From Chrysomallon squamiferum (taxonomy: Eukaryota; Animalia; Mollusca), in the NCBI GenBank assembly GCA_012295275.1, contig CM022674.1:10540001-10604000 (forward strand): a DNA stretch of 64,000 bases, read 5' to 3'. This document shows, in pieces, positions 666 to 53,110 of this stretch (position 1 is the first letter of the stretch; the number at the start of each line of letters is the position of its first letter). The notes beneath the pieces are model-generated. The model ran no database searches. It was not told the origin of the DNA and was given only the letters and a program-made list of their open reading frames with translations. The translations under genes and the position numbers were made by a program.

Positions 666-1124
666 ATGTCTTCAAAAAAAAAGGGGAAGTCTATGCCTGC
701 TAAACTGATGAAAAAGAAATTTTTGTTCGAAGAGGCTAAAGTAAATGTCGAAGAACTGAAGGATAATTATGAAGTTCAACAGCAAAGTGCGCCTGATAAT
801 GTGATCCAATTCGAGGACCCTGTTCCAAATGATTTTACATTTACCAAAGGAATTGAATATTTGGATGATGATGACTTTGAAGAGGAAAAAATGAAGTCCA
901 AAAGGAAGAATATAAAAACGTACTCTTCAAAGACCTCTGTTGTGAAAACTCAACAAGGAATGTTGAATCGTCACCCATCTCAGAGAGTTAAACAGCTTTC
1001 CGTCAGTCTTAAAACTGAGTATTTGGGCCGTAACGACCTTTTTGCATCTTCCAACAACAACGATTATTATCCCTTGAACAAACTGCAGGTAAGATCCATC
1101 CTATTTAATGAATTAGAATGAACT

Positions 1125-1185
<61 letters not shown>

Positions 1186-1350
1186 GCTGATTTCAGTTAT
1201 ACATCACAGTTGTTCAAGTATTCAGTGTTCTATTTTATGTTTTAATTCAATAATTAATAATTATATTTATTTGTCCACATATATATATATATATATATAT
1301 AGAAATAACTAATTTTTACACTTTATCAGCAGATTTTTCCTTCTAAAATG

Positions 1351-1383
<33 letters not shown>

Positions 1384-1785
1384 TGGAATTATTTATTTAT
1401 TTTTATTTGCAGGATGTGGTTAATAAGCTGAAAAGTAAATATAATTTTGAGCTGAATTTCTCTGGCATAAACCAGCTGACAGATGCAGTGTTTGCAACAC
1501 TGCTAAAGCTACATGATGGAGGTTTTGACAATGTGATGAAGATAAATCTGACAGGATGTTACCACATCTCAGACAGAGGGGTGTTCTGGCTTACAGTTTG
1601 TTTTAAAAATCTTCACTCAGTAAGTGAAACAGTTCATCACAGAGAAATTGTAGCTAGTGTTTTTAAAAAATTAAGCAATTCTATTAGGATACATGACACA
1701 CAGCTTTGTTACTTACCCTTTTTTTTAAATGTGTTAACATGGTATAGAAGTTGATATTTTTCAAATGTGGTGTAATTTATGTTAC

Positions 1786-1868
<83 letters not shown>

Positions 1869-4800
1869 CACCCACCCACACATACATCATGGGAGTTAAA
1901 AAATTAACTGTTGTGTACTTTTATATCATATGATTTGAATAAAAATTAATGTTTACTTTGTAGACAAAATATATTTGTTTCTAACTGTCAAATGTCATCT
2001 GTTTCAGTTGAATCTTATGAGCTGTGTCAGAGTCACAGAATGCAGTCTGAGTTCCATCATGGCAAACTGTAAAAACCTGACCAGTCTCACTATTACTGGA
2101 ACCAGTGTTAAACTGCTGCCATCCTGGCTAAGAAACTACACAGAGTTAAATGTTAATTATCTCCCTTTGGCATCACCGTCTCTTGAACAGTTTGAAAAAG
2201 AAAAACAAGCAATACTGAAAGGTAAATTTTTTAAAGACTTTTTAGGTTTAAAATATAATCTTTTATAAATTTTATTAAAAATATGAAAATATAAATGAAG
2301 AAAAAATACTTTCAGTGCTGAAAATGAGATTTTAAATGAGATTTAAAGAAGATAGTGAGTATAATTATATATTCATTTTCTATTCCAAGCCCAGCTTTCA
2401 AAAATCTCAGTTTTGAAAGAATGTTGTATATGCCTGCTTGTATAGTTAAAAAAACACAGAATAGATTTCTTTCATTCTATTTTGAATTCTTTTTTTTTTT
2501 TAATTCATATAATTATATTTTTCTAATTTATTTACTTATATGTTTGTTTTACATATAAAACTGAAGGAATGCAGATTTAAATTTATGGAGAAGAAGTGAA
2601 AAATAATATTTTTAATATTTCTAAATTGCTGTAAAAGCTTATAAAGGTAATATTTCTCATTTAATAATTTATTTTTGCAGATGAAAACTTTTTCAAAAAA
2701 AAAGAAACTAATTTGTACAAAGTAATGATTATCTGACGAAGATCAGTTCAGCTTAGTTTGTTGAAACTGATAAAAAAAGAAAAAGACTTGTTTGTCAAAG
2801 AGGAAGTGACTTCTGACCTTTCCTACAGGCTGAACCAAAACTTCCTGGCATTCATAGAATGTCCTGAAGTAAGTTTATTTTAAAATAATTATCAGCTTCT
2901 TGTCAGTATGGTGACATTAGAATCTGTTAGAAAGAAACTCAATAACTTTTTCAGAGTAATTTTTTTCATTAATTTTCTAATCATTTCTAATGCATTTGTC
3001 CCAGACATGATTATGTATTTCTACCTTCCTTTTTTAAAAACTTTTGTTATCTTCCATGGTCTCCGGACATAAACTATTACATAAAACATTGCAATATCAT
3101 TTTTGTCAAGGCAGAAGAGAATTCCAACGTGTGTTTAACATTAATATATACTGATATGATTATAAATGTGAAAGAAATTGAAAAAAAATAAAATTGTTTA
3201 TGTGATCTTTCATTTTGAAATTATATTTACAGATCTAAGTTCAGTAAGATTTCTGATAATGGAAAGATCAACACACACACACACAGACACACACATGGTC
3301 CATGCTAGTCATCCACACACACACACACACACACAAACACTCTTGCAATTATTTATTTTTTTGTTACCGTTTCAGTGTATGGAACTTGTAAATTATTAAT
3401 TGCTGTAAACATTTCCATGGATTCAGTTTTTAAAAACAGACTGAATTGTTGGGTTTATAGATTTTATGTTTTATTATGATGTGTTGTTGGGTTTTTTCAG
3501 AGTGTAGCCCATCTGTTTTTTTCCAAGAGAACCTGTTTCGTGTTGCCATATCAACTGCAGGATAAAAATAAAATCAAACAGGAGGCTGCAGATATAGCTA
3601 GTTTTATCTGTAATCTTGTAGCAAGAACCTGGGTAAAATATTTTTATTTGCAATAAGGTCAGTTTGTACATTTTTTTTAAAGAAACCTGGTTAATTAACC
3701 AACTATTAACAGAAATTTCTTATTTTTGTTTTTATTTTTAAAATATATATTGTTATAATATGATTAGATCTTTTTATTTAATAGATACTTTTACTTCAAT
3801 AAAATTACTAATTCATTATACATAAAAAAATGGTATTTATATTTGAATTCACCAAACAATTTATTAATAAAAAAATATTAAATTTATTAGGAATAACTAT
3901 TAGTGAGATGAACATCATGTTTGCCACATGTCAGTTAATGAAATTAATTTCTTTTTTCTTTGAGCACAAACAATGAGCTAATGTTTATAATGCAAAAAAC
4001 AGTTAAACAGATGAATATTTTAATTAGCCTATATATTAAAAATTTATTTTAAATTGGAGTGTATGTCTGTGTGTGTGGGGGCTGTTATTTAAAAAAAAAA
4101 AGTATTTAATAAATATTAATTTTAATTTTTTTGATAGCCTTCCCAGAACTCTTACACACTTGTTGGTATAAACACCAGTGTAGCTGGTGTGGTTCCGGCA
4201 GACATCTTGAAGGATGAAGTTGAGAAAGTTCTCAAACAAACAGAAAAAGACTTGGAATCAAAATTTGAAAAACTGACAGATATAAAGTAAGAATATACTT
4301 CTTTATATTTCATTGTATTTTCAATATACTTTGCTCAAACTAAAACTTGGTGACATATTGGGAACATAAAATTTTAGCATGTCAGCACTGAAAAAACCCC
4401 TAAAATGTCTCAAATTTTATGAAATAGCACTATTTCTAATAGCAGATAGAGCCTTTGAAAAAACAAAGTAAATAAAAGAAACCAAATCTCATTAAACCAG
4501 CATTTCTCCAAGTTGGTTTAAAACGAAAGATTACAATAAAATATCATCATGGACATGTAATTTTCTCTAAGTAGACTTCTTGATAAAATGTATGCAAATG
4601 CATATTTTTATGTTTTAAAGTCTTGTTTTGGGTTTTTATTTTCTTTGTTTTTTCCTTATCCTTATCGTTACATATTATTACAATAACTTTCAAATACATT
4701 TTATGATAATTACAAAATTTGCTAATATTTTAATGTGACTAATTTAGGATATGAGTAAATGAGTTTCTGTGGGGCTTATTTTTACTTTTTCATGTGTTAT

Positions 4801-7800
4801 TTTTTATAAATTTTTATTCATTTTATTCTATTTCTTTTTTACTTTTTTTTTATTTTAAAGAACTAATTCAACAGCAGATTACATTGATCAGGAGAAATTG
4901 GCTAGAATCAAATCTGTGTTGTCAGGAGTTACAGATCTCATTTTAACTGGGGTTGAAGTGACCACCAGTGAAAAAGATAGAGACAAAGTAAGCAGAATTA
5001 ATATTTAATAAAAGAAGAAAAAATCTTTTTAACCAGCATCCTCCAAGTTAATTTAAATAGAAATTTTACAATAATATATCATCACTGAAATATAATTTTC
5101 TCCATTTTGTTTATATCAAAGAAGAAAAAAAGAGAAAAAAAGTTAAATATATTTAGTTTTTAACTTTTATTTTATTTGTTTTACTGTTAATTAATAAATT
5201 AATGGGTTTAAACTGAAACAAAACTGATAAAATACAAACTTAATTAAGTGTTAAACTGGCTGTTGTGTGTTATTTTGTAAGGAGGTAAAGAAGGTTCTGG
5301 ATGACCTGGTTTCCCAGATGTCACAGCTGAACACAAAGTGTCCTGACACTGCTGACTATTCCAAGTCACTTCATGACTTCTGCTTGTCCAGTCCACTGAA
5401 AGATGACGTCTGCTCACTGGACAAAGCACTTCAGAGTCTTTCCTACTCTAAAAATAGACTGACCAATCAGGGAGCTCTGAGTTTCTTACATATGATGGTA
5501 ATGATGCATTTTTTTCTCATAATTTTATTTTATTTAATTTTTTTGTTATTCAAAGAACAATAACATCAAAATATTCTTTTCCATATATTTTTCACTTAAG
5601 TCTTTGGGATTTTTGGTTTGAAGAACATTTTTAGAGAGATGCTATATGAAAATTGTGCTAGGGTTTCCTAATTTGGAATGTATATATTTAGAAACAAACA
5701 CAACAAACAGGCAGAAAGAAAATTTTGGAAAAATTAACTATTCTTCTCTTATAACCTTTATGTTGTTTAAAAATACAAATGAAACACATCATTATTTTTT
5801 AAATGATTTCTTTTGACGTATGTAAACAAAGATTAATTTCTTTCTGTTAACTGTAGAAATACATGTCTGTGATGAAACCCAGCAGTTTGAATAATATGTA
5901 TATATTGGTTTGGGTTGCAGATGTTCATGAAATGGGGTACTATAATATTTAAGAAAGCCAAAAATAAATGTAACCATTTGTCATAAAAAAAAAGTAAACT
6001 AGTACTAATTTTTTAGTAACAAAAGGGGATTATTTCCATCAAGTTATGATTTTTTGTTTTTGCCATACATGTCCCCTTAAAAAGATACAACTTAATTTAT
6101 CATTACTCAGTTAACGTCAGAGTATAGGGCTTATATTTAAACAGTTTTCTAATAGAAGCATGCTAAAATCAATATCTAAATAAATGAAATGTTGATCAGT
6201 AAGAATAATTATTAATTTCTGACTTATTTTTCAGGGAAAAGTGTGTTTACTGCCTCAACCAGATGGATCTGATGTAAAGAATGTGGTAAAAACAACATGG
6301 CTGCAACAAGTTCTTAATGTGTTGATGGGGTCACCAGAAATTTCTTGTAACAACGGAACTATTGCATTTGTAACAGACGACACTCTGGTGTGGGAGAGTT
6401 CAAAACTAGACAAAGTTGTCCAGGATCATAAACTCAGTACTAGTCCAGAGGTAGCACTTTGAACAGTGTTTTTTTTATCTTTTTTATATTTTTCCAATTT
6501 ATTTTAACTATACTGATAAATTTAAAAAAATAAATAAATAAATAATAATTAATACTTTCTTTTTGGTTTCAAATTGTCCTTTTTTCTCAGTTTTGATTAT
6601 TTAGTTTGTTACTTATTTAATTACTTTCCTTTCCTTTTCTTTACTTTACTTTTTACTTTTTACTTTACTTTACTTTACTTTACTTTACTTTTTACTTTAC
6701 TTTTTACTTTACTTTTTTTTACTTCACTTCACTTCACTTCACTTCACTTCACTTCACTTTACTTCTTTAGATGTCTGCTGCCCTAACCTGTGTGAAGGAG
6801 TTTCTAGGTCTTGAGGTGCCAGGAAAGGTTTTCATTAGCATGCATCATCTAAAAAATGAGCCTCCTTTATCTTTGGTAAGAATAATTTTGTGCATGTGTG
6901 TATGTATATATGTGGATAATTCTATCTGTTAGGTCTGTCTGTCTGTCTTTCTCGCTGATAGTTACTATTTGCATTTCTCTGTTAACAGCAAAGTAAACAA
7001 TGAATAATTTCAGATATGAAGGTTTATTGAACAAAATAAAAGTACTCATTATAACTGATTAATATTAATTTGATATTTAAAAAATTAATAAAAACCCAAC
7101 AACATAAGAATATTTATTTTCTAAGTAGTTATCTTGTAGGCAAAGTAGAGATTTTTCATGAATTTTTATACCCAGAGCATAAGTTAAAGTTTATTTATGT
7201 TTTTTAGCATGGTAAATTCTGTATATAATCCATATTTATTGGAGAAAAAAATACTAATTCCAGAAATATAACTGCATGTATAATAAACTATTATTATAAT
7301 CAAAAAGTAATAGAAACAAGCTGAAAACTGCATTAATAAAAATGTTACTGAATTAAGGTTATCAAATCTATAATCATGAACAAAATAATATTTTTTCTTT
7401 TTGAATCACAGAATAAAAGATTCATAGAAACATAAAAACAAAGTATAATAATTATTATTATTATTATTATTTTCTTCTTTTTTTTGTTTTCTTTTGTGAT
7501 GCTGAAAAAGAGCAGTATAATTAAAATAGGTGAATTATAATAATTTCAGATTTGAAATAACATTTAATAGTTAAATATATTAAATGCATGTAAAGTTTCA
7601 TAATCTATTTTCACCAGGATAAATTTCTCAGTGAGAAAAACAATGATGTCTGTGAAAAGGTAACTTACACTTACTTGCTGAATCATCAACTTCCTGTACC
7701 CACAATGCATCAGCTGTTAAACTCCATTCTGAAATTACATCTGCCAATCATGTTGTGGAGAACTGGTTGTATCCTTCATGATGGGATTGTAGAAGTTCTT

Positions 7801-10800
7801 GTACACATGAGCAACAGTGAAAATGGTATTCATTTTTAATTTTTTATTATTATTATTATTTTAAATTTTATAAACATTTGTTGTTGTTATTATTGTTGTT
7901 GTTGTTGTTGTAGTTAAGTAGTAGTAGTGGTACCAGTAGTGATAGTAGTGCAGTAGTGAGAGTATTATATTATTTGTATTTTTTTATATATATGCTATTT
8001 TTATGATCTGCTATTATTATTATCATTATTATTATCATTACCAGTATCATTATTATCATAATCATCATCACCATGATCATCTTTATTAAGTAGTAGCTGA
8101 TGTAGCAGTAAGAGTATTATGTTAGTTTTGTTTATTTATTTATATATTTATTTTTATGATTTATTGTTATCATTATCATCATTGTCATTATCATTATCAT
8201 TATCATTATCATCACCATCATTATTACCATCATCGTTACTATCATTATCATAATTATTATTATTATTATTATTATTATATGGTGTGATGGTGGCATTCTG
8301 GTGGTGGTAGTAGTAGAGTAGTAGTATTGTATTATTATTACTTATTTATTTTTATGTTTTATTTATTTCAGAAAATGGTTGTATCACTCTTCATGCACAG
8401 GTTATCAAGGCACAGAAATCAGCTGATATGTTATGGAACTCAGCAGAGCAGTACAAACAAGTCATAGACTCTTGTCTGGCAACATCAGGAATATCATCTG
8501 AGGTACAACCAGTGTCATTCCCTGAAAAGAGAATTTTCACTTCCATTAATATTAATACCTTTTATCAGTTTCTGTTTAACCATAACAACTCTTCCAAAAA
8601 AACAAAACAAGAATTTTTATATGAATATTGTAACCTTTTAACTTCTGTTTAGTTAAAACAGGAGTCATAATAAAGTTTTCAAATTAAAAATTACTGAATT
8701 GATAACATTTGCTTTAAATGCGATGAGTCCTGGATTAATGTCTTCTTAAAAGTTTATTTCCCAATCTAACCAACAAATGCAGATTTTCTCTTATTTGTCA
8801 TCAATATTTTTTAAAAATGATGTTTTAATTATTTAGTTTAAATATAATGTTTACAAAAAAATTATTTATTTATTTATTTTTAACAAAATTAAGAGTTTTA
8901 TATCATATATTAAAATTAATATTTTTTTTTTTTTTTTTAATAAATTTACATAAGTGGAAGAGTATTTCAGAAAAATGTGGATTTAGAATGAACAGAAGAT
9001 GAAATTTCATTATTTACTGAAATGAAATCAGATGGTTAAAAAAACAGTAGAAATATTCTTGGATTGATAATTATTATTTCTTTTTAGTATTTTTGCCTGT
9101 TAATAATTTTATTTTTTAATTAATTAACAATTTATAGGTGGTGTGTGAACAGAGTATAGATAAACCACGTGAGTTTAAACCATTATAAAAATGACTAATT
9201 ACTACTTTTTCTGAAACATTTGTTATATAATTATTTGTGATTTGGACTTGTAAAATATTAAGACTAGTGGTTACAGTATGTAAATTTTAATATATTAGCC
9301 TTTCAGGTGCACTTTGAAATTATTATTCTTAAAAAATTTAAATTAATAAATGAAGCCAAAAACAAAAGTGAGAAATAATGTATACACTTTAATTAGTCAG
9401 GTAATTTAATATAAACATTTGTTTATAATGATTATTATATTAGTGTAGTCATTAAGTAATAACACAGATAAATAAATAAACTAAAAGGGAGTGCATTTTT
9501 CAGCTTTATATTTGTGTTTACTTTATTTTAAATTAAGATTACATAACTGGGCTCACATCTGGTCACAGTTTTCAAATGGAAGCTTCGGAACATTCCCAAT
9601 GCAAAACATGCAGCATCTCAGTCAAAGCTGCCAGGTATCAACAGGTAAATATTAAATATAGTTAATTATACACAGTTTAATTTATTTCCAACTTGTGTTG
9701 AACCGTATTTCTGTCTTAAAGCATATTAGTGTTTAAAGAAAATACCCAAAATTATTTTGTGTACTCATTCAAGATTTTTTTTATTGTCACAAGGTACACA
9801 TTTTGTAGTCAATGGATAACATAAAGTTTTGGATGCATTTGCTTTTTATTTTATTCTATTTTTTATTTTTGCTGACTGCATTTGATGATGTTTATAAGCC
9901 TATGGCAGTCCAGTGATCAAACCATTGGCCAACCTCACAGAGATAGAACTTGACATGTTAAAATAATTTTTCAAATTAATGGGTGAATGTATATATTTTG
10001 TATCCTGATTTATTCCATTTCAGCTATAAATCATATTTTTATTCCAATTATAATAAAACATAAATGATTGGATAGAAAAATGTTCCAGCTTTCTGAAAAT
10101 GCATAATATGTAAAATTTACGTCTTACTCTTATTCATACATGTCCAGTTTTCTTGTCTTTTTTGCTCCTTTAATCCAGTTTTAATAAGAAGTAAAATAAT
10201 GCATTTTTTTGGACTTGTTTTAAAGCTATTGTTAACATTTTGAAAGTACAGACAAAAACATTTTGTATGGAAGTTATCATCATGTTTTTGTTAAATGTAC
10301 TAAAATTGACAATATTTTACAATACATATTATATTTCTCACTGTTAGTGTTTTAAATTATAAATACAATTTCATATTTGTCAATATATTACTTTAAAAAT
10401 TTACATGTGTTTTTTTCCATTCTTTTACAATGCATATTAGGTATTTTTCATTGTTTCATAAAACATCATTTTTAAAGTTCATTCATGTTTTTTCATTATT
10501 TTACAAAACCTTTCAAGTTTTTAAATTGTTTCACATGATACACCAGTTTAAAACATTACTCATGTTTTATAATTATTTTTCATTATATCATTTACTCATG
10601 TTTGTTTTACATTATCTCATCATTTAAAAATATTTTTCAGTATTTATAAAACTCATCATGTCCTCTTTTTATTTTAGACATTTCAGTCCACTATTTCTGC
10701 TGTTTATTTAACTGACAAGGCAGCAAGATTTGATCCTGAAACCTGTGGTGAAGTGGAAGGAACGACAGTTGTAATGAACAGTGTAGGGACATGTCATCTG

Positions 10801-11178
10801 ATGAGCAGTATGACAGCATTTGAGAACAGCTACATCAACTTCACTGTCACTTCCTTGCCTTCAGATATAGCCTTGTGTATAGTTGGTTTAGTGTAAGTGA
10901 TGTTCTTTTTATCAGTGTGTGTGAATGTGTTGTGTATGTGTTTTATGTATGCGTGTTTGGGTGTGTGTTTGGGTGTGTGTTGTGTGTGTGTGTGTTTTAT
11001 GTACATGTGTATAATAGAATAGTAGAATATCTGTCAGTATGTAGTGTGATATATACAAACTCATTTGTAATACATGTCTGTGTTGTGCAAATATCATTTA
11101 TGCATGTACTGTATGTATATTGTGTTTATAATTTTTTGTTTGTGTGTATGAATGTTACATATAAATCTGATTCTTTGA

Positions 11179-11226
<48 letters not shown>

Positions 11227-11376
11227 TAGTAATATGATAGAGAGTGAGAAATAAAACAGAGATAAAGGGTCAAAAAATATAAATAGATAAGTGACAGAGA
11301 CAGAAATAGAGAATGGGATTGAACTACAAAACAGGAGAGAGACACAGTTATACATAAATGTATAACTATATATGTG

Positions 11377-11411
<35 letters not shown>

Positions 11412-15940: not shown

Positions 15941-15991
<51 letters not shown>

Positions 15992-17617: not shown

Positions 17618-17703
<86 letters not shown>

Positions 17704-20186: not shown

Positions 20187-20265
<79 letters not shown>

Positions 20266-23200
20266 TTAGAAAAATAAAAACAGAGAGAAAGAGAGAGACT
20301 GACTGATTAGCAGAGCAAAACAGAAATTGATTAGGTTATATGTTTTATTATTTAGGTTGAAAAAACCAGACTTCCTACTGAAGAGTTACAAAGAAGATTT
20401 CCTCAGATCTGTGGTTTTCATTATGTCAGCTCTTACTCAGGGGAGGTAATCATTAATTTATTTATTTATTTTCAAAGCTAAAAAATGCTCTTTAGAAATT
20501 AGTATTTTTATATGGTTTTTAATAATTAATTGAACTGAAAACTATTTATATCCATGCCTTCTCAAATTTTTTTTTATTTAACTTTTAATTGCTTATATTA
20601 ATTAATTTTTAAATTATCTTGATTCTGTATTAAAATTTATATCTGTACATACATTAATTTGTATTTATTTATTATTATGTTGTTTTGTGTGTTTCATTTT
20701 CATTTCTTAATTATTGTTGTACTCATTTTACTGTAGATAGTCTGAATCCAAGCATGTTCAACCTTTGAAAATTATGTTTAATTGTCATTATTTTATTTTT
20801 TTAAACTCAGGGAGTTTCTAATCTGATGAAGGACATTGTAGGTGTGACTCTGAAACAGAAGTACATGGGAGAGCAAATCCCTGAAGCGTGGTTGAACTTG
20901 GAGAAACATCTTCTCAAATACAGAGAACAAAGCCTGGAACTGCTGCCATGGAAAGAGGTGGAGAAAGAAGCTTCATCATGGCACTGAACTAAAAAACTAA
21001 ACTTTTTGACCTGTTTTTTGACCTAAAATTAACTAAACTTTTCTGATTTCTGAAACACAGAGGGCTAAACTTTTTAGACTAGAAACACAGAGGGTAAAAC
21101 TGAACTAAAATTGAATTAAAATTAACTAAACTTTTAGACTGATTTCTCTGAAACACAGAGGTACTGAACTAAAATTAACTAAACTTTTAGACTGATTTCT
21201 CTGAACACAGAGGTACTGAACTAAAATTAACTAAACTTTTAGACTGATTTCTCTGAAACACAGAGGTACTGAATTAAAATTAACTAAACTTTTAGACTGA
21301 TTTCTCTGAAACACAGAGGTACTGAATTAAAATTAACTAAACTTTTAGACTGATTTCTCTGAAACACAGAGGTACTGAATTAAAATTAACTAAACTTTCA
21401 GAATAATTTTTCTGAATCTGTATTATTAGTATTGTTGTTAGTCCACATATAGATTTTCTGAAAAAACAGAGGTACTGAATTAAAAAAAAAAAAACTTTTA
21501 ATAAGGAAAAACACAGAGGTACTGAATTCTGTGACTAAAATTTCAGAATAATTTTTCTGAAAATGCAAATGTACTAATTAATATAGCAAAATAAAATATA
21601 TATTTTAGCAAAATAAATTATATATTTTTGAAATATATATATATATATATATATTATTAATAACTTGAAAATAAGATATATCAGAAAAGTTAATTCTACT
21701 AACTGTATCTTTATATTTGTGTATGCTTTTGTATCTTCATTTATTGTCTGTTTGACCTGTATTTATATCAATTTTTGGTAATATTTTAATTACACATCTG
21801 TATTTTTTCTTTTTAATAACCTATTTATTAACCTCTATTTTACCTCAATTTATTTTACCTTCTGTTTATTACCTGTATGTTTTCACCTGTTTCAGATTTA
21901 CCAAGGTGTGCAGTTTCTTCATGACTTGGGTTCAGTTCAGTTCTTCAACACCGATTTTCTCAGGTCTCAGGTTGTCATTTATCCTCAGTGGATTGTTGAT
22001 GTCATGGCCTGTGTCGTCACGGTACACGTTGGCCCAATACAGGTGAGTTAGACACACACACACACACAGTTAACATTCAAACTAGAAACAGTCAGCAAAT
22101 TAGTTTGAGTTTTGAAATTCAAATAAACTAAATAAATACAAAATAAATAAAAAACACAACTAAAATATGCAGAATACACATATATGCTGTGTGTGCATGT
22201 GTGCATGTTAATGATAAACAAAACAGAAACATACATTACCAGGTGGAATTAAAAACAAGTTTTTAATTTTTGAGTTTATATATATTTGAATATTGATGTT
22301 TGTCTTACAGAATGGCAAGTTTCAGCACTGTGACATGGCTAAAGTTTGGAAAGATTATCCTAGTGACCTTCACCCCTGGTTACTGCGACTCACAGAAGAG
22401 TTTGACCTGACCTTCCCAATACCTGATGAAGATGCCAATATTGTTCCTTGTCTTCTTCCAAACGCTGAACCAAAGGTAAACAGTACACGGTCAACGTCAA
22501 ATGACTTCATTTTTTCAAAATTATTTGTTTAATAAGCCTTTCACCACTGAGATGTGTATTATAAAATATTTTAAGTATAGTATAAGTAGATGATAATCAA
22601 GAAAATCAACACAATCATTATAGCTGAGTTTTAAGTACAGAAGAGGACAAAACTGTGATTGCTGTAGGAGTCAGTGTAGATACAGAGAGGATCAAATTGT
22701 GATAGCTTTGGGAGTCATTGTTAGTATTAGAGGAGGTCAAATTGTGATGGGTTTAGCAGTCACTGTAGCTGCAGAGAGGGTGAGAATGTAGATAAGGTCT
22801 GAATTGTGACAATTGTAGGAATCCCTGTAAGTACAGAGGTGTAAAAACTGTGATGGCTATTGTAAATCCAGTGGAGGTCAATATTGTGATGGCTATAGGA
22901 GTGACTATAAATGCTAGATGTATTTGAATTACTGACAGATTTATTTTCAATTTTTATCTATATTGTGTTTATTATTTTCAGTACACATGGCCAGCAGTGG
23001 ACAAAGAAAAAGGATTTCATGAGACTAAAATGATCTACAAATTTGATTACCTCCCTGCTGGCCTTTTTAACAGAGCTCAGGTAGTTATTTATTAATTAAT
23101 TATTAAATGATATCAGTAAGAGTGAATATTTGTAAATGTTATACATGACAATTTTATTAACACATATAACATGAAATAAGTCTTGTATTACAGAACTCTA

Positions 23201-24335
23201 TCTACTCACTTGCTATGTAAACAGTGTTTATACTGAGTACATACATTGAGTACTCAGTTTTAAATAGAAGATGTAGAAATATTTGACTACAAGCATATAC
23301 AAAAAAATACAGTTATAAATAAATATTTCTATGCTTATGTTATGTTTGAAGCTTAATAACAGTGTAATGTTCTGTATTTTATAAAATAAAAGTATCAGTC
23401 AAGTTAGTTCTATGTAAAATTATTGTAATTTTATTTACTGAACATTTATTTAGAAATATCAACATTTATTTATAAACATCAACATTTATTTACAAACATC
23501 AATATTTATTTGTAAACATCAACATGTAGTTATAAATGTAAACATTTATTTATAAACATTTTTCAGGTTCGACTTCAAGAATTTTCAACAAAATCTTTGA
23601 TGTGGAAGAAAGGTTCCATGCTTAACAAGAACAACCATAAAGCTTTGCTGCTTCAAACCAGGTGAGATCAAATTTAGTTATGTCTGAACAAACAGCATAA
23701 ATACATTCTCTATACTTTAGGCTGATTATTGTATTTGTATGTATAATATAAACTAAATTTCATTTATGTATTTTGTATGTTTTCAAGTAATTATTTTGTC
23801 TCCTGTTGAAAGTTTACATGTAATCATATCAACAGATAGATTTATTGCATTTTATAGGCTTCAGACAATCTGGTTTATTTATTTATTATTAAAATAAACA
23901 AATATCATAAAAATACATTTTTATATTTTTCCAAGTACATATTTCTTTCTTGTAACTTCAGTTATGAAATGAATGACTAGCCCAATCATAATGTAATACT
24001 TAATTATTCTTACTTGATTCATTATTAATAAGAGGAATATTTTAAACATAACATAATTGTTGTTATTTTGTTTACTGTTCAGTTTGCCAGTATTCTGTAA
24101 AATATTTTATACTAATAGTACAACATTGTTTTAGATATATCATTTCTGATTGTGTAATCAGAGTGTAGAGGTCTGTTTCTGTGTACACATTAACTTTCTC
24201 ACAAAAAGATTTCATCGAATATGAAGTCAAATCATGAAATGCTGAATTTATGGACACGGGATGAATATACAGTGTTATGTCAAAACTTACAATGTGTATT
24301 ATTATGATTACTGTTATTGTTATTATTAGTATTAA

Positions 24336-24387
<52 letters not shown>

Positions 24388-25620
24388 GATGGTGTTGTTG
24401 TTGGTGGTGATGGTGTTACAGATGTTGTTATATATATTCCAGTGACACAGAGGTGGTAGTCAAAGTTCAGGGTTTTAAACCAGAGAATGTTTTGTTTCTG
24501 GTACATGAGGTGTTTGAAACTCTTGTACACGAGTCTTACAGTGGGGTCCATTATGACTTCTCCATTCCGTGCATGGACTGCCAGGCTGAGGTAAACACTT
24601 TGACATCTTCAGAAATTTAATTAATTATCAGTCCTTGATGATTGTTATTAAACTTTATTTATTGAGAATAATACTTTTTGAGGGTGACTACTAGAATTTA
24701 AACTATTCCAGCAATTCCATTTTTGTTATCCTAATAAAACTAGAAATTTCACTTTTCAGTCTTTTTTATTTTCATAGTTTCAGTTTATTTAATAATATTT
24801 GCCATAATTAAATTACTCATAGTATACAGAATAATTTTATTTTTAAAGAAAAATTTATATCAGTTTATTTATTTTATTAAATGTATTTAGTGGAGTGGAG
24901 AACCCTGCATGTTTTCTGCATCAAAGATTCGAAGAGCTCTTGAGATGAAAGCTCCATTCCTACAGTGTGACAGTGCTTTTCACATTCTAGCCATCCCAGA
25001 GCTTCAAGGTATATCTGTCGATTAATTAATTTAATATTTATAAATTTCAGTTAAATTGTATCACTAATTCCACTAAAATATACTGAAGTTGTTAAAATGT
25101 ATTTATGGTGAGCAAGACATTTTGGAGATGTCTTTTAGAATTTAAACTTTATTAACTATTCTTGCCAAAATTATATATCTGTGTTTTGTGTGTGTATGTG
25201 TGTGTTTAAAGTATACAACTAAATCTATATATAAATATCTTCAACATAAATTTCAAGAAATTAATTATTTTATTTCATCAGCGGTTATGCCCCCTGACAG
25301 AAACACTGACTTTGATGAGCATCTTAGTCGAAGTGTTAGAGAGTTATGTGACCTTGAGGATGCAGTTACCATGACAACATTCTTTTTGTACTCCAAGAAA
25401 AACATCCCTTCATTGGCTGAAGAGTCCACATTAGTGCATCCTGGGAGAATTATTGAAGATCTGAGAGCATGCAATATCAAAGTGTATGTCACATGTACAC
25501 TAAATAGTTTTAGAGTGACATATTGTACTTTTTAATGAGAAAGTATACATTTTTGTCTCTGTATGTTTTTGTGTTTCTAAGTGTGAGTGTGAGTGAGTGT
25601 AGGTATGTGTTGTATGTTAG

Positions 25621-25656
<36 letters not shown>

Positions 25657-27918
25657 TGTGTGTGAGTGTGTTTGTGGTTGTTTGATTATAGATATATAAA
25701 CAGATGGATAAATAGAGAGAGAAATGTGTTTATATATATGTATATGTACATATAAATGTTTGAGAAAGAAGATAAAAATTATGTATATGGATGCATGCAT
25801 GCTTGTGTTTATATGTGCCTATATCGATTCATAACATTTAAAATATTTACTTTGAAATGTTAAAATTAAATGTTAACTGGTTCCAGGTCTTTCTGTGACA
25901 ACCCTGAATCAGCTGATATGGAAACTCTGACACTGTCACTGAAATCAGCCCAGGTAATACAGAATTTTCATCATAGCAATTATAATGTGTCCAGAAACTT
26001 AAACTTTGAAATTGCTGGCTAGTACTGTGTGATCTTATTGTGCATATAATGGTAAAATACATCATATATGTTTATTCATTTTAATCTCAATATAATTAAT
26101 TACTGTGTTATATATTTTACAATTATTTTTCTGTTAACACATTATTAAGATGTATTCACTGAAAACATTTTGTTTTGCATCCATTCGTTCATCTATTCAT
26201 CTTTCATCCAGCTGTTCATTCATTTATCAGTTAATATAACATATCCACCAAAAAACATACACAGAAAAAATAATAATAAATTTGAACAATGACAATATAT
26301 TTATAACATTTTTAAGTTTAATGTCTATTTTTGATAATCATACTATTATATACTTGCCTCTGTCTGTCATAAGATAGCTTTTAGTTTATTTATTTTCTTA
26401 TTTTAGGTTGTTTTGATTGGAATGTCAGATGAGTTTGTGGAAAATGAACAATGTAAGACTATAATTAGCTACACAAAGGAAACTCTCCATAAACCAGTTC
26501 TGCTTGCTGTTCTTGGCAAAACCTCAAACTGGACAAAAACTAATCTCAACATCATTCTGGGCGAAGAGGTCAGCCATTTTTTATTAATAGACCATTAACA
26601 TTTTTAATCATTAGTTATTTTAATTAATATTTATCAAAAATACATTAATAATGCTTTGTTATTATTTAATTAATATTTTAATTATAGTACATTAATATTT
26701 TTAATTAGTAGTAAAATATATTTTTTTTATTATTAAAATTTAGAGGATAACTTTAATTTACCAAACTGTTTCATTATTCTTCTGTTTTATTAATTTATTT
26801 ATATATAATTTTTCTTTTCTTCTTCAAATTTCTATTCTTTTTATTTTCTGAAAATTGTTTTTTACTTTTATTCTTGTTCAAAGTAATGACAACCTAATTA
26901 AAATATATGTCATTCAGACTTTGTGTTACAAGATTTGATGCTGTTAATGAATGAACAAACTGTTATTTTAATTGCAGGTGTTTGTGAAACTTCACGATCC
27001 TGCTCGTTACGAGGTGAAGAAAAATGAACTTGTTGAAAAGTTGAAGCTCAAAGCAGGGCACACGAAAAAGGTTTAAAATTACAAGCTTCTTTATTTTTAA
27101 ACTTAATTTATCTTACTTATTATTCTTATTTTAAATTATTACAGCAACAAAAACACTGAAATTTTTCTTCTTGATATTATCAAAAACGTTGATATTGAAA
27201 TTTTCTTTTCTTTTCTTTTTTTTGATATTTGTCAAAGGTTGTTTGCTTTTTAGTATTAATTTTTGTTAATGGTCTTCTTTTTTAAAATTTTATATGAAAG
27301 ACTCTGCTTTTTGATATTCATTTTTCCTTATTTTTCATTATATATAAAATATTTCACAGTATATATTTTATAACTTTAAAAGTTAATTTGTGTATAAGCA
27401 TGATTTTTCTTCTACCTTACAAATTACAGATGTAATCACTAATGTAATGTAATAAGTATTTACAAATTTTATTTTATTTATTTTTAGAATGAAGACTTTC
27501 CTAAATGTTTCATCAGCTACTGCTGGGCCAACTCAAAACTTGCTAAAGATTCTGGATCGAGATCAGGCCCTGGAGCTATCGGGTGGGGTGACCCCAGGAA
27601 AGTGAAAGATTTTCTAGAAAGCAAAGGCATAAGCTGCTGGCTGGATGTGGAGAGAATGGGCACGAAGGTAACTTCATAAAATGTTTTCACCTCTCCTGTA
27701 TCTGTAATGATAAAGATTTTGACTTCTGTACTGGAGTGACCAGTTTGGCTGTCACAATACAATGAGTTACTACAGAAGCCAGTTATCTGCCTGGATATTG
27801 TCTGCAGTTGAAAGTTAGTACTTAACTCAAATGAAGAGGTGAAACTCTAGAAAGTGCACACTTTAATTATCTATTTGCTCTTCTTGTACATTAAAAATAA
27901 CTAGCACAGATGCTTCAT

Positions 27919-27953
<35 letters not shown>

Positions 27954-28470
27954 TTCTGAGTTCATGTGAATTTGAAATATTTTAAAAGATCTGGTATTTA
28001 TATATATATCTGTGTGTGTGTGCACATATATATATGTTACTTAAAGTCACTGGTGTTTTTAATCCTAATGATGACAAGATATTCCTTTGTGTTTTCCTAT
28101 TGATTTGAAGGTGTATATTAACATTCCTTGTTTCAAATTGACGCTTTTCTCTTTCATTATTTTGGTGGTATTCCCTATATTAAAATCTTGCCACTATAGT
28201 TATATTTTAAATATTTTGAATAATTTGATTCAAATCATATTATTTACTGAAGAGATAACATGTTCATTTATTTCTGTTGTTTGTTTTAGGAGGGTTTCTT
28301 TGAGGACATTGCAGAAGGTCTCAGGAAAGCCAAGGTCATGGTTGCATGTGTTTCAGATGAGGTATGTTACCATAGTAACAGTGTTATAACAAGATATGTT
28401 TAATGTGATCAGTATAAATCTGAAAATTTTCAGGTTCTTTTTCGTCTTTGTATTTTATACTTTGTAAAAA

Positions 28471-28534
<64 letters not shown>

Positions 28535-31500
28535 TTATTTTATTTCATTTATTTATTTATTTATATATTTATAAAAAATGTTTACTAATTTTTAATAAAA
28601 ATAATGTGAGCCTCCATTGAATACACTTTAATATTTTCACCTGGCATAAATATACCAGAATATCCTTAATGGAAGATTGCTACTTCATAAATATTCACCT
28701 AGCAGTAAATGAATATTATATTGACAAAATATTTTATGCTGATTAAACAGGACTGATGAACTTCCGGATTCTTAAATATTGGTCCATTTATTCACTACAT
28801 TCCTTTTTCTTTTATTTAAATAATAAAAGATAAAAGTGAAATAATAAACTTAGAGTGACATTTTCTCTTTAATTGTAAATATAAAGAGACTTTTGCCACA
28901 TTGAAAATATTAATAATAAACAGTAATTTATTGGATGGTAGATTTTTTTTCTTTATACCTCGAACAAGCCTCAACTACTGATTGGGTTAGCTATTTTATA
29001 TAAAAATGAGTTAATTGTTAGTTATTAGAATCATTTTCAGAATATGACATTAATTTCTAACCTGTTATTTTCAGTACGTGGAATCCAAGAATTGTCGAAT
29101 GGAATTTCGATTTGGAATTTGTACACTGCGAATTCCTGTTGTCCTAGCCGTAGTTGGTACAGGCTATAAATGGGAGAGGTCAGAGGTCAGTGATGTTGTT
29201 ATGGTTAATACTGTGTTTCATAATCACATTGTTGTAAATTTGTAAAAGAATCATTAATGTTTTATAAAAGATATTTATATGTTGATTATTCTATTGTTAT
29301 TTTTATTTGATATACGTATATATATTAATAGAGATACATACATACATACATATATATATATATATTATGCTAATATTATGTTTTAATTTTAATTTAATTT
29401 TATATTTTATTATGATTTTAAATGTATAACCTGCTACGCACAATATACATATCAATCTACATAACAGATAATTTTGCATTGTTCACAGGTAGGACTGATT
29501 TCAGCAGGTAACGAGTGCCCCAAGGTCAATCTGCAGTATGACAATGAGGCTGGACTCCTTGACTTGTACACACTCATCAACGACATTGTCAGCAAAGCTC
29601 CAACAGACACAACTACAACACAGTCGGCATCAGAAATGAGGAAGACAGCATTTCAGGTTAAAATTATTACAATGATTATGTATTTTGTGAAACTGTGTAG
29701 TTTCTAAAAGGAAAAGAAAAAATACAAAAACTGTATATGTGAGTGTCAGTAAAGTGATTAATATGATGGGTTGGTGTGTAATATGGGTTGTTATGTTATA
29801 GATCAGTACAGATTTATAGAGTATTATAAAAATAAGGTGTGAAATTTTTGTTCAGTACTACTGAATATGTGAATCCTTTTTCTTTCATGTTGTTTTTTTA
29901 ATTTTTAATATTCTTACATGTAGGTGCTTCTATCCTTTTTTAAAATACATATTTTTATAACAGTGCTAAATAATTGGTTTTAACAGTTTAGAGTTGTTTT
30001 GTGTATCAGGAGGTTCTTGAGCTAGCACAGAGAAAGTTTTTACGACATCTAGAAAACTACGCCAGCTCACTGAACCGAGATGAGTTTCCGAATCTGGTGA
30101 CCATCGACCTCGCAGACGAGAACAAGAAAGAAGAAGACTCAGCTGAATGTAATGATGCAGTGTTTCATGCCGACGTAGCTGCAATATACGAGGTTAAGAC
30201 ATTGGACCAGGCAGAACAAGAAGACAAACTACAAAAAGCTCTTGACAGAAAAACTCAGCGGGTCAGTCCAAGATGGTTTACTTTTCATTTCTTGTTGATA
30301 TTTAAAAAAGGGAAATACTTTACAAGAAGAAAAGTACAGAATGTTAACAAAATGAATCAGATTTGTTAATTGAAAGTAGAAAGAAAAATGAAAGACAGAT
30401 AAAAGCAGCAGTAATAATAGCTAGCCAAAATGACAGATAATAATAGATATAAATGATAAAGAAATATATCCTTATAATTATTTAACTGAAAATGAAATGA
30501 AGAGACGCCTCATGTTGTTGTTTGGAAATATGGAGAACAAAAAACAAACGAAACTTTGTAAGAAAAAAATTATATCTAATGTTACTATGATATCTATAAT
30601 TTATACATTGTCATTGCATTTATCTGTTTTTTTTTGTTTCTTCAGGATCAAGAGAGGGAGAGAAAGAAATCTACAAAACAGTCTAAATACTGTTTTAAAA
30701 TACTGTGTGAATTTGAACAGGTAAGATTCCAGATATTATGTTGAATACATAAGGTAACAATTAATTTTTGAAATCTTAATAAATTAATTAACATACTTAT
30801 ATTACATTAAAAAATGGTTTTATATTAACAGTTATTAACAAACAGACATTTTATATTTGCTGCACAGTGATAATATGAGACAGGAAACTAATAACTGCAT
30901 TCAGCCTGGTAATTAACAATATGGTCTGTTTTATGCACCTTCCCATAGGCAGCACAGTACATACCTACACATTTGATACAAGAGGCGTTCATTGGATAAG
31001 AAGACATTTATTTTTAAGAAATTGAGGTTTAAAATTCAAAATTAAGATTTTTTGAGCAAATTTTAATGAGTAATAAGGTGTGTCTCATAACGCTGAGAAA
31101 TTAATCTGTAATTTGTTCAGTTCAAATGAAGAGCACAGTTTAATGAAATCAGACTTAGACAAGTTTTTGTTTTTTTAAATAAGTCTTAAAAGAATCAAAG
31201 ATGTATTACTCACAGACGCCCACAAACACACACTTATACAAACATATAGACTGTATACAAATAAATTAGGATTTCATTTTTACATTTACCCACATATGCA
31301 AACCTATATGTGTGATGAAATAGGAGAACCAGTCCAATGTTGTGCAATGTAATTTGGAGTTACAGCCTATTAATGCAGTACAATGCCTCAGTTTGTTTTT
31401 CACCATAAACAGTTTTGAAAACATCTTGACTTTCATGTCTCTGTAGGTTTTTTGCTGAAATCAGTCAATAAAACATGTTCTTTGTGTTTTTGTTTCACCT

Positions 31501-32162
31501 ATCAAAATCTTGATTAACAAAATTATGCTAAAACTACACACTTATTTTGCCATGTTTCATCTAAAATCTCTGATATTGCACACCCATGCATCACATACCA
31601 CTGATCTGTAGAATGTGATTTATCTTATTCCATCAAAACCTGAGTTTTGATAATTTTCACCATGTAACTGTTTATCCTATGTAACTGATACATGTGTAGT
31701 TTTAGCATAATTATTCTCAGAAGCAGTCAGCTATATATGTATATTCCACCAATAGCAGTCACAATTTATAATTTTTGTACTGATACTAACAAAGTATTTG
31801 ATTGTTAATACTGCAGGGTTGGCATTCAGTATCTGAAACGATTCCACTACCTGATTCAATCCATGACGATGAATCATTTCTGAAGTCTGTAGCACCGTAC
31901 TGTGCCCGTCTCTTTGCAATTCTCAAACACACCAGTGTCCAGCTCAATTGTCTGACCACAGCTGAAGGAGAGCAGCTGAGGAAGAAACTAGAGGAGGTAA
32001 CTAGACTGACCAGTTTTAACACTTATTTATTGACTTAATGATGATTTTTTCTTGTTTTTTTAATTTTTAATGTTTGTTTCATTTAATGTCAACTTTATTT
32101 TTATTTTATTTTTATTTTTAATTAAAAATATTTATAAGGCATTCTTCAATTTTAGATTCTGC

Positions 32163-32201
<39 letters not shown>

Positions 32202-33513
32202 ATTATTATTAATAGTAGTAGTAGTAGTATCTTAGTTTTAGTATTAATCTGTGCCTTTTATATTAACATAGGTTCCCTATTTGTGTTTTGACCTGCATTC
32301 AAATGTTTTAATTGTATGATGATTAATTTTTCATGTTGTGGTGTTTTAGTGGTGTGTTAAGATGACCCAGGAGTTTGAACAAGAATACACTCTCATGTTA
32401 AAAACTGTCATGGAGGCAGATGTGAAACACAGCATGGGAGGACTGAAAAGGTATACATCTGTCTCTGTGTCTGTCTGTCTGTCTTTGTGTGTGTGTTTTG
32501 TGCATTTATCTGAGCATTTTTGTAATGAAAAAAGAAAAGAGACAAAGAAAGAAAGAGAAAGAGTGTGTGGTGTGTATGTGTGTATATGTTTGCATGTGTT
32601 CATGCTCATATGTCTTCACCTGTATATGCTTAGATGCTTATTATGAGAGTTAAATCATATTATTAATTCCAGGATTATGGGGAAAGTAATAACATAAGAA
32701 ATATATAACAAATAGGTATTTTATAAGTTATTGACTGGACATTACCACTGTGTTTGAAAATGAACTGACAGTTAGATAGATCATCAGTTTGCTATAGAAG
32801 TAAACTTGTGCATGGTTGCAGGTGTCACATGACGAATGGAAAGGAGTTGTGGCTGTGTGCAGATCACCAGTCTCTGAGTGGGAGCAAGACAACTGAGCGC
32901 TACAAGGATCAGCTCAAATCTGTGGCCGACTCTGACATTCCAGACAAGTCACAAACCAAGTCTGATGCAGTAGGAAACTCTGAACCTGCAGTGGACAGTG
33001 AAAATGAAAGTAAACAAACTGGTGAGTGATCGATATTTCATTTGACACCTCGGTATAAATGTTAGTTAATATTACAAGTTTATGAGACGCAACAGAGGAA
33101 CCTCCAACCAAAGGACCAAAGAGGTACAAACCACATAATTTCTAGATTTTCATTTTTCTTTCTAAGTTTATTTGTTTCACTCATATGTATATTGACTGAA
33201 AAGGATTTTCATCATACTTGTTTAAAACATTAGTTACTTGACTGGGATATTAATCAACACTGTCTGAAATTCTGGTCTGTGGTCACCTCATATTTTCACA
33301 TACATTGTAAGGAAATTCACCAAGGGTGAATTGATTGATATGTGCTGTGATTTATTTCTTTATTATTTTAAACTTTATTTTTCAGAAATATCACAAACGA
33401 CAGACAGTGATAACAAAGATGAAGCTGAGTTGCCTCCCCTTGTAAAATCTCCAGTTCAGAAAGGCAAAAAGAAACTGAAGAGACAGACATCACAGGCCTG
33501 TTCTGTTATGTAA
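666..33513 (+). CDS. Giant multidomain ROCO protein (LRR, pseudoRoc-COR, SPRY-like, MBT, LRR, Roc, COR, TIR x2, C-terminal Cys/His module, CaaX), ~51 coding exons, ~2,800 aa
   Basis: Hand-spliced exons with consistent phase: 666-1088, 1413-1619, 2008-2221, 2681-2868, 3501-3632, 4138-4286, 4861-4987, 5282-5497, 6235-6450, 6771-6875, 7618-7825, 8372-8502, 9138-9168, 9538-9644, 10678-10892, 11549-11858, 12499-12583, 12923-13090, 13311-13390, 13627-13747, 14888-15088, 15575-15690, 16240-16431, 16601-17320, 17739-17883, 18292-18480, 18848-19013, 19218-19392, 19933-20079, 20356-20445, 20811-~20980, 21896-22042, 22311-22475, 22982-23080, 23567-23661, 24443-24590, 24891-25008, 25282-25483, 25887-25953, 26407-26568, 26978-27070, 27488-27667, 28290-28361, 29075-29185, 29489-29656, 30010-30261, 30646-30720, 31817-31996, 32350-32450, 32822-33021, 33386-33513. 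Two lesions: in-frame TGA at 2734-2736 and a missing donor near 20980. Confidence 0.85.
1413..2221 (+). CDS. ROCO exons 2-3: cysteine-containing (FBXL/AMN1-type) leucine-rich repeats
   Basis: NVMKINLTGCYHISDRGVFWL, NLHSLNLMSCVRVTECSLSSI and NLTSLTITGT match the LxxLxLxxCxxITDxG pattern. Confidence 0.75.
2681..8502 (+). CDS. ROCO exons 4-12: degenerate (pseudo) Roc-COR tandem
   Basis: KVMII*RRSVQLSLLKLI (P-loop position), AHLFFSKRTCFVLPY (cf. THQFFLSNRAVYLL), LVGIN (cf. VVGTH), ALSFLHMMG (cf. QFLHDLG), VVKTTWL (cf. VIYPQWI), LWRTG (cf. MWKKG), in the same order as in the intact Roc-COR downstream. Confidence 0.65.
12499..13390 (+). CDS. ROCO exons 17-19: MBT (malignant brain tumour) repeat
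   Basis: IEPGMRLEALDLLNPSLICAASV / WLIHFDGWTNRYDY...HLHPLGY...LQAP / FSWPQYLKEVKAQPVPWEHF are typical MBT core and arm motifs. Confidence 0.9.
14075..14910 (+). repeat. 35-bp minisatellite made of splice-acceptor plus exon-start copies
   Basis: Unit tttcagctttggagaagtatataaaactaaaatat, about 24 copies; the last copy is the acceptor of exon 14888 (tttcag|CTTTGGAGAAGTATGTAAAACTGAAG). Confidence 0.92.
15258..15420. repeat. 33-bp minisatellite, about 5 copies
   Basis: Unit gagttatattagaattctatgtagtgacataat. Confidence 0.8.
16601..18480 (+). CDS. ROCO exons 24-26: typical leucine-rich repeat array
   Basis: Repeated LxxLxLxxNxL, e.g. MTKLDFQNNSI, LVCLDVSHNRL, LKKLSLNYNKI, LEKLNLSNHAF. Confidence 0.92.
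18470..18788 (+). repeat. 56-bp minisatellite derived from the exon-26 donor
   Basis: cactcacag|gtaat recurs at 18478, 18536, 18592, 18648, 18704 and 18760. Confidence 0.9.
18848..25008 (+). CDS. ROCO exons 27-37: intact Roc GTPase plus COR domain
   Basis: TPPKEIVARG linker; KLMMVGLGGAGKTS (G1), ITDGIDI (G2), WDFAGQ (G3), VGTHCD (G4), VSS (G5); COR motifs QFLHDLG, VIYPQWI, VPCLLP, YLPAGLFNR, MWKKG, PCMDC. Confidence 0.95.
19337..19850 (+). repeat. Degenerate tandem copies of the Roc G3 exon end plus donor
   Basis: The exon end attgtttacagtgtctgggattttgctggccagacagtttactacaatacacatcag|gt is re-found, decayed, near 19465, 19546, 19655 and 19800. Confidence 0.85.
20981..21560 (+). repeat. ~53-bp minisatellite containing acacagag|gtactg donor-like units
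   Basis: Unit acacagaggtactgaattaaaattaactaaacttttagactgatttctctgaa, starting exactly where exon 31 breaks off. Confidence 0.85.
22615..22925. repeat. Degenerate ~46-bp intronic tandem repeat
   Basis: Recurring gtacaga..g..caaattgtgat.gct.taggagtca pattern. Confidence 0.6.
23441..23560. repeat. 20-bp tandem repeat abutting the acceptor at 23566
   Basis: aacatttatttataaacatc, about 6 copies. Confidence 0.8.
25282..29656 (+). CDS. ROCO exons 38-45: two tandem TIR (TIR_2-like) domains
   Basis: TIR-a: FFLYS...LTLSLKSAQVVLIGMSDEFVENEQC. TIR-b: CFISYCW...CWLDVERM...IAEGLRKAKVMVACVSDEYVESKNCRMEF...PVVLAVV. Confidence 0.85.
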
Positions 33514-43900: not shown

Positions 43901-44810
43901 ATTAGACAAACTAATGATACAAACAAACTATAAAAATATAAAACAATATTTATTCTTATCTTTAAAAAAATTAAGAATAAAACTATGAAAATCATTGCAG
44001 TAAAATATTTGTTTAGAAATAAAATGTATAGAATTATTTCATATTCATGCAGGATAGAGTTTGCTTAAAAAACATACCTTTCGAGATAAATCTTCAAAGA
44101 TTTCTACTTCATAATACAACTGACCAAACAACTTGTCCAGGGAATATTGGTCTTGTCTGTGCCTTCTCTATTTTCTAACTTTATGTTATTATGTCTTGCA
44201 ACCTTGAAGTCGTAATTGTTGATTATTACAGCTTTACCTCGTGGCACACTTTGATTTTTGTAATCCTTTGAGAAATAAGTACAGTTAATGTACTATTATT
44301 ACTATTATTATTAAAACATTAAAAAGAAATATAATAATAAATGTAATTATAATCGTATTAAATAATTTTAAAAAGATATTAAGCTTTTTAATTTAGTCAA
44401 AATGTATGCAGTTGGTGTGTAATATATATAGCCATAGACAACATAATACAAATAATATATCCACATAAATTCAGAATATACAACAAAACAACAGATACAG
44501 AAAACAAACGAAATAACACAAATACAGCCAACACATTCACATACACTGACAGCATATCACATACATAACAAATATACAGACAAGAAAAAGAACAACAAAC
44601 TCAAAACTAGCAAACATACAGACAACAAACCATTAATAACACTAACAGACCACATTAAAAACAAGTAACAAACACAGAAAACAGACACCCACATGCAAAA
44701 AAAAAATAATTTAACACACGTACATACAAAACACAAATAAACACAAATAGTTAAGGCTTTTCTTTTAAGATTACAGATATATCTGATAGAAACCATTTAA
44801 TACTATAACA

Positions 44811-44842
<32 letters not shown>

Positions 44843-53030: not shown

Positions 53031-53082
<52 letters not shown>

Positions 53083-53110
53083 TTATGTTTGTTTTATTAT
53101 TGTTGTTGTT

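Follow-up and report, generated by a model that had tools for sequence, protein, structure and literature searches.

The present analysis concerns a 64,000-nucleotide stretch of the Chrysomallon squamiferum genome (contig CM022674.1, positions 10,540,001 to 10,604,000 of the forward strand; hereafter the window), AT-rich animal DNA that carries on its forward strand, at 666-33513, one gene of 51 exons and 2827 codons. In the encoded chain an N-terminal LRR, a dead first Roc-COR, a beta-sandwich and an MBT repeat are followed by a second LRR array, an intact second Roc-COR, two unequal TIR domains, a Cys/His module and a conserved CaaX box. Judged by its sequence, the gene is an ordinary orthologue in an ancient invertebrate Roco-TIR family that extends from Trichoplax to amphioxus. 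With a likelihood that we place a little short of even, the protein would be a membrane-anchored, Roco-gated TIR NADase of the ecTIR-DC 14 II type.

The gene model rests on a reading of positions 1-35000 together with tblastn of orthologues, and all of its introns are GT-AG. A profile of orthologues, built without the window and without Gigantopelta sequences, matches 45 of the 51 exons in perfect order. This bears out the phase-consistent chain of about 51 exons described in an earlier note on this DNA (the original prediction), and the comparison indicates that the 51-exon structure is real and the locus one gene. We have also considered that the locus might hold tandem genes, one for the N-terminal pseudo-Roco/MBT part and one for the C-terminal LRR-Roc-COR-TIR part. 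Such a division is seen in the RefSeq models of Gigantopelta, Haliotis rubra and Aplysia, the Gigantopelta C-half model beginning at the equivalent of exon 21. However, the break points differ between species, a 2734-residue Aplysia model is also on record, and in the window introns 19-24 are all short, with canonical splice sites and consistent phase. When the C-terminal part of the Gigantopelta protein was used as a query, at least 101 relatives of 900-2867 residues were returned; among the matches listed, 24 of 101 have MBT and COR in a single chain. These 24, which like all the relatives compared here are gene models, come from gastropods, bivalves, annelids, one nematode and Trichoplax, and they bridge the MBT-LRR junction. 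Two genes split between the SPRY/MBT part and the second LRR are thus very improbable, and the single gene originally predicted stands.

The match of the largest exon is a Gigantopelta aegis protein (64% identity). In a tree of 46 sequences, computed from Roc to TIR2, the closest branch to the window is Gigantopelta (sister group, support 1.0); the mollusc clade around the two also holds Aplysia LOC101848126 (support 1.0), and Trichoplax and the window share only a broader clade (support 0.91). The layout recurs in a 3282-residue amphioxus protein, which has two MBTs and ends in a CaaX, and each of the 14 segment profiles of the family finds its match in a 2928-residue Trichoplax H2 protein. 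Several paralogues per genome are present in molluscs and annelids, and no vertebrate, arthropod or cnidarian name occurs among the 101 proteins listed, in a search limited by length and by number of candidates.

The comparison of profiles and models argues that the protein is a double Roco with a pseudo-GTPase as its first Roc in the bilaterians checked, because the N-terminal half matches Roc-COR in both profile and fold while the G1 motif is lost. The profile of this half, for which a first homologue search gave three scallop proteins only and a representative search mostly MBT proteins, matches the C-terminal COR of the same protein with P = 95.5% and its Roc more weakly (P = 76%), with mismatched segment pairs below 8%. 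An AlphaFold model of the N-half of the Haliotis orthologue (23 rows; predicted local distance difference test score, pLDDT, 77.6) resembles the LRR-Roc-COR of C. tepidum Roco, LRRK2 and LRRK1 in structure comparison. The G1 motif GxxxxGK[ST] of the first Roc is found in 1 of 18 aligned sequences, that of Trichoplax, and is absent in the window. The degenerate N-terminal Roc-COR of the original prediction is thus upheld. The MBT-less paralogues P0142, P0144, P0164, P0170, P0207 and P0213 keep pieces of the pseudo-Roc-COR, and the Roc-COR duplication therefore predates the paralogue split. A CxxC pair after the first COR may possibly form a metal knuckle.

The segment that follows had been called SPRY-like. 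Its all-beta sandwich fold is retained in our analysis, with galectin-type matches in structure comparison, but its SPRY identity is at most putative: SPRY profile searches were negative or weak, even though true SPRY domains are present in paralogues. A PDB sequence search with the Trichoplax beta-sandwich segment gave 0 hits, and the ESM Atlas held no usable match for the sandwich or for the C-terminal Cys/His module. The predicted MBT domain is recovered by Pfam and by fold, and its D/F/W/Y cage, at positions that we take from L3MBTL1 to be those of the methyl-lysine cage, is intact. Fold and cage together solidly predict a domain of the methyl-lysine reader type.

In the C-terminal half, Pfam Roc, COR-A and COR-B follow one another on the window exons and in relatives, which defines a Roco protein. 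Together with the G1, G3 and G4 motifs this order bears out the intact second Roc-COR; of the 99 proteins of the family, 83 keep G1 and 94 keep G3. The site of the exon-25 insert in the preceding LRR array shows a weak EF-hand match in orthologues (E 0.0099 in P0128). Pfam scans of 10 relatives and of P0001 gave no protein kinase family, as expected for the kinase-less protein that had been predicted, and UniRef and other database labels such as 'serine/threonine protein kinase', 'pats1' and 'MFHAS1' are attached to the kinase-less P0124, P0126, P0178, P0273 and others. The Pfam scans gave no NACHT or NB-ARC ATPase either; an NLR-like logic is nevertheless plausible.

A model of the Gigantopelta TIR region (pLDDT 84) contains two TIR folds, in accordance with the tandem TIRs predicted, and structure matches of the TIR-TIR-module model covered the two TIRs only. 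The best PDB sequence match of orthologous TIR2 is the NADase Cat1 (E 1.5e-6). The active site of Cat1 includes S7, D33, S68 and E74 and is a composite built by two TIRs, according to the accessible text of PMC12162218. D33, S68 and E74 align with TIR2 residues and S7 has a counterpart by position, and these TIR2 counterparts show no variation across the 21 mollusc-clade rows. The catalytic Glu is present in 83 of 89 TIR2 domains vs 3 of 95 TIR1 domains. The residues retained make TIR2 a somewhat better than even candidate for a catalytic NADase, and TIR1 looks like a pseudo-enzyme. The TIR effector of the original prediction accordingly persists as a tandem, although not as a pair of equals.

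It is also conceivable that the two TIRs have no enzymatic activity and form a scaffold for MyD88-like or other TIR adaptors, with signalling to NF-kB, a role proposed for ecTIR-DC proteins. The top structural matches of the TIRs include MyD88, MAL and IL-1RAcP, TIR1 appears non-catalytic, and both an adaptor role (PMC6321704, in the accessible part) and a GTPase-TLR cascade (PMC9334734, likewise) have been hypothesised. However, an adaptor would offer no reason for four NADase-site residues to be near-invariant from Trichoplax to molluscs and lost in the neighbouring TIR, and the best sequence match is an NADase. We consider the scaffold unlikely; with the NADase residues present in TIR2, an enzymatic effector is more probable than one that recruits adaptors. 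As a separate observation, the Oscarella sponge protein P0379 (751 residues), whose N-terminus resembles a TIR (TIR2 profile, E 1.3e-6), also has four MBT repeats and is another TIR-MBT fusion.

A scan of 121 non-family proteins placed the Cys/His module at the C-terminus of two bacterial-type metagenome LRR-Roc-COR proteins (E down to 1e-6). In those proteins it stands directly after COR-B, and the TIR pair seems to be an insertion into an older Roco framework. At the very end of the chain, a Cxxx terminus is found in 61 of 99 family proteins (61 of 72 if only those whose C-terminal module is intact are counted), where the background Cys frequency is 2.2%. This conservation speaks for the polybasic CSVM prenyl anchor of the original prediction, which remains a predicted one.

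Several known systems share parts of this layout. The LRR-Roc-COR fold of C. tepidum Roco, LRRK1 and LRRK2 is common to both halves of the present protein, but those proteins have one Roc-COR only and are not known to have an MBT, tandem TIR or CaaX, and the output of the LRRKs is a kinase. The TIR NADases Cat1, SARM1 and plant TNLs match in TIR fold and active-site residues; Cat1 is triggered by a cyclic oligoadenylate, SARM1 by nicotinamide mononucleotide or nicotinamide adenine dinucleotide (NAD) via ARM-SAM, and the plant TNLs via NB-ARC. No TIR NADase gated by a Roco GTPase was found in the literature searched, and no paper was found that combines TIR and C. tepidum Roco.

The ecTIR-DC 14 II class was reportedly defined by Gerdol et al. 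in 2017, a work that may already describe more. Trichoplax H2 TrispH2_001486 and TrispH2_004509 are drawn as members (PMC6321704, Fig. S1), with about 3000 residues, no transmembrane segment, and LRR, P-loop NTPase, MBT, LRR, EF-hand, Roc, COR, TIR and TIR; the 2928-residue Trichoplax H2 protein is linked to TrispH2_001486 by length only. The window's family has the architecture so drawn, although the Trichoplax proteins add SH3 and chromo-like domains, extras that the window lacks, and keep the first P-loop. The accessible part of that paper does not mention the first COR, the CaaX or the split between TIR1 and TIR2. Aplysia LOC101848126, an orthologue whose RefSeq model lacks the N-terminal LRR and pseudo-Roc, is described with MBT, ROC, COR, LRR and TIR and filed as a putative TLR (PMC9334734, as far as accessible). 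For TRIADDRAFT_57945, whose layout is the same, the available text of PMC4104024 reports a Ras-like domain N-terminal of ROC, called two GTPase domains per protein novel in 2014, and reads the former as a lone Ras-like output domain; here the Ras-like domain is followed by a COR, and G1 is lost in the 17 other sequences checked. Bacterial LRR-AP-GTPase(Roc)-COR-effector proteins, with TIR and other effectors, are proposed conflict systems (PMC8195603, accessible part). They have the LRR sensor, Roc-COR, TIR effector and Cys/His module in common with the window, but are predicted only and have a single Roc-COR, whereas here the TIR pair lies between COR-B and the Cys/His module.

In the literature searched, with most subscription journals outside it, no functional study was found, and neither a second COR nor a CaaX nor the NADase residues were mentioned. 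The claim that no protein of this architecture has been characterised holds in that sense, but the architecture had been described in silico in the three animal cases above and is less new than supposed. What is new relative to the literature searched is the second COR, the conserved CaaX and the TIR split. As a whole, the original prediction was partly confirmed and its interpretation partly supported.

The prenylation, GTP-driven clustering, role of the dead Roc-COR and catalysis proposed here draw by analogy on C. tepidum Roco, Cat1 and the bacterial Roco-effector systems. By the CaaX rules, CSVM would very probably be farnesylated, and the basic stretch would hold the protein at the membrane. 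The LRRs, beta-sandwich and MBT would take the input, and the GTP cycle of Roc would change COR-mediated self-association, as in C. tepidum Roco, which alternates between dimer and monomer with nucleotide (PMC5714945, accessible part). The dead Roc-COR might, as a tentative suggestion, act as a built-in partner or brake. Clustered TIR2, with TIR1 or a neighbouring TIR2 completing a Cat1-like composite site, would then cleave NAD+, giving a signal or depleting NAD+.

Alternatively, the protein could be a non-immune membrane or trafficking regulator, a scaffold like LRRK, MFHAS1 or Pats1 or a SARM1-like metabolic or neuronal sensor, with the TIR serving development or homeostasis. The orthologue is conserved across phyla, the CaaX and small-GTPase fold point to endomembranes, and section 5 of PMC4104024 (accessible text) reviews the part that Rocos play in trafficking and chemotaxis. 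Against this, the LRR-Roc-COR-effector layout parallels the bacterial conflict systems, as far as these are described in PMC8195603, and molluscs and annelids have several paralogues per genome, so that we regard a non-immune role as rather doubtful.

The assembled copy carries two lesions, neither of which the original prediction reported. The first is an in-frame TGA at codon 300, at the degenerate P-loop position in exon 4. At this position the Gigantopelta N-terminal piece, which aligns gap-free over 306 residues (62%), has Arg; the stop could have come from a CGA codon by a C-to-T change, and the gene is depleted in CpG (observed/expected 0.21). Among in-frame acceptors past the TGA, the best score is 2.0, under all 50 modelled acceptors, so that the case for rescue by another acceptor is weak. 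Skipping of exon 4 shifts the frame, skipping of exons 3 and 4 keeps it but loses LRR and pseudo-Roc parts, and selenocysteine is unlikely in view of the Arg, no search for a SECIS element having been made. The second lesion is the damaged 3' end of exon 31, with GC where a GT donor is expected at 20981 and about 8 codons absent. Use of a cryptic GT after 20957, whose score of 5.6 is normal for a donor, preserves the frame at the cost of 15 residues. A 53-bp array of donor-like units follows the exon and is a likely site of a real deletion or misassembly; every micro-exon candidate of the right length in intron 31 that would complete the GC donor creates a stop.

As assembled, the TGA would stop translation. 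We give an even chance to this copy being a null allele or young pseudogene, and a like chance to the TGA being a consensus or assembly error. The two lesions, and the 15 window-only vs 8 Gigantopelta-only changes at 582 conserved columns, might also indicate an old, decaying pseudogene that has lately been functionless in this lineage. However, that excess is not significant (chi-square ~2.1), the conserved-column violations (17/91 and 39/562) are in the range of intact orthologues, and the branch lengths are 0.09 and 0.07. Apart from the two lesions there is no frameshift and no clear decay, and the other 49 introns are canonical. An old pseudogene is thus highly unlikely, and any loss of function must be very recent.

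Several introns contain tandem copies of their own splice junction. A shuffle test bore out the arrays on the acceptor side of introns 20 and 25 and on the donor side of introns 26 and 28, and that in intron 28 repeats the exon end encoding Roc G3. The CpG ratio over 666-33513 compares with 0.87 over 50000-64000, a contrast that suggests gene-body methylation and hence an expressed gene. The downstream CARD-caspase gene, on the opposite strand, is recognized by Pfam Peptidase_C14 (E 2.7e-20) and CARD (E 1.4e-4), and the ion-channel exons by Ion_trans and PKD_channel. All coordinates are collected in the table.

Table. Positions of the gene, its domains and neighbouring features in the window
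Feature	Position	Strand	Remarks
Exons 1-10	666-1088, 1413-1619, 2008-2221, 2681-2868, 3501-3632, 4138-4286, 4861-4987, 5282-5497, 6235-6450, 6771-6875	+	coding
Exons 11-20	7618-7825, 8372-8502, 9138-9168, 9538-9644, 10678-10892, 11549-11858, 12499-12583, 12923-13090, 13311-13390, 13627-13747	+	coding
Exons 21-30	14888-15088, 15575-15690, 16240-16431, 16601-17320, 17739-17883, 18292-18480, 18848-19013, 19218-19392, 19933-20079, 20356-20445	+	coding
Exons 31-40	20811-20957, 21896-22042, 22311-22475, 22982-23080, 23567-23661, 24443-24590, 24891-25008, 25282-25483, 25887-25953, 26407-26568	+	coding; exon 31 with cryptic donor
Exons 41-51	26978-27070, 27488-27667, 28290-28361, 29075-29185, 29489-29656, 30010-30261, 30646-30720, 31817-31996, 32350-32450, 32822-33021, 33386-33513	+	coding
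N-terminal LRR	1437-2202	+	cysteine-containing; residues ~150-275
Degenerate Roc	2707-4897	+	small-GTPase fold without G1 and G3 motifs; residues ~291-450
In-frame TGA	2734-2736	+	codon 300
First COR	5399-9560	+	COR-A- and COR-B-like; residues ~520-790
CxxC pair	9600-9611	+	after first COR
Beta-sandwich	10681-11834	+	all-beta, galectin/ConA-like
MBT repeat	12499-13390	+	single; four methyl-lysine cage residues D, F, W, Y
Linker	13627-16678	+	conserved, orthologue-wide; residues ~1105-1340
Second LRR array	16691-18951	+	Pfam LRR_8; insert is exon 25
Intact Roc GTPase	18970-20816	+	G1 GLGGAGKT (18988), G3 DFAGQ (19354), G4 THCD (20065)
Second COR	20859-25313	+	COR-A, COR-B; Pfam
Damaged exon-31 end with donor-like array	20957-21416	+	53-bp array at 21112-21416
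TIR1	25371-27058	+	catalytic Glu replaced (Ile here)
TIR2	27497-29548	+	NADase-type S, D, S, E residues; Glu codon 29102-29104
Cys/His module	29636-32900	+	CExxxxWH ... WLCxxH
Polybasic stretch and CaaX box	33457-33510	+	CSVM at 33499-33510
Splice-junction copies in introns	14073-14909, 18472-18788, 19390-19850, 21112-21416		tandem
23-bp array	42666-43139		
CARD-caspase gene	43513-46502	-	
Exon-like frames of another gene	54411-56254	+	no Pfam match
39-bp array	56612-58252	-	in Glu/Lys-rich coiled-coil-like frame, open 57404-58252
Ion-channel exons	60478-63566	-	TRP-like by appearance

This copy being broken as assembled, an intact orthologue (Haliotis, scallop or amphioxus) is the better starting point, and the part worth following is the reading of TIR2 as an NADase under a dead-plus-live pair of Roc-CORs. 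What Roc-COR does in the absence of a kinase is still debated in the LRRK2 field. If NAD+ cleavage were the output of a Roco, the state of the GTPase switch could be read out simply, and invertebrate immunity would gain an enzymatic TIR family. Dimer models could be tested directly on a naturally occurring pair of dead and live Roc-CORs. More speculatively, and we think this broader picture somewhat unlikely, the family may be a bacterial-type Roco immune switch, present from placozoans to amphioxus and apparently lost in vertebrates, in which the dead Roc-COR serves as built-in dimer partner of the live one and a pseudo-TIR/TIR NADase at membranes is activated through the GTP cycle. If true, animals would have, besides SARM1, another family of TIR NADases, and this one would correspond to the NLR resistosomes with a GTPase as its gate.

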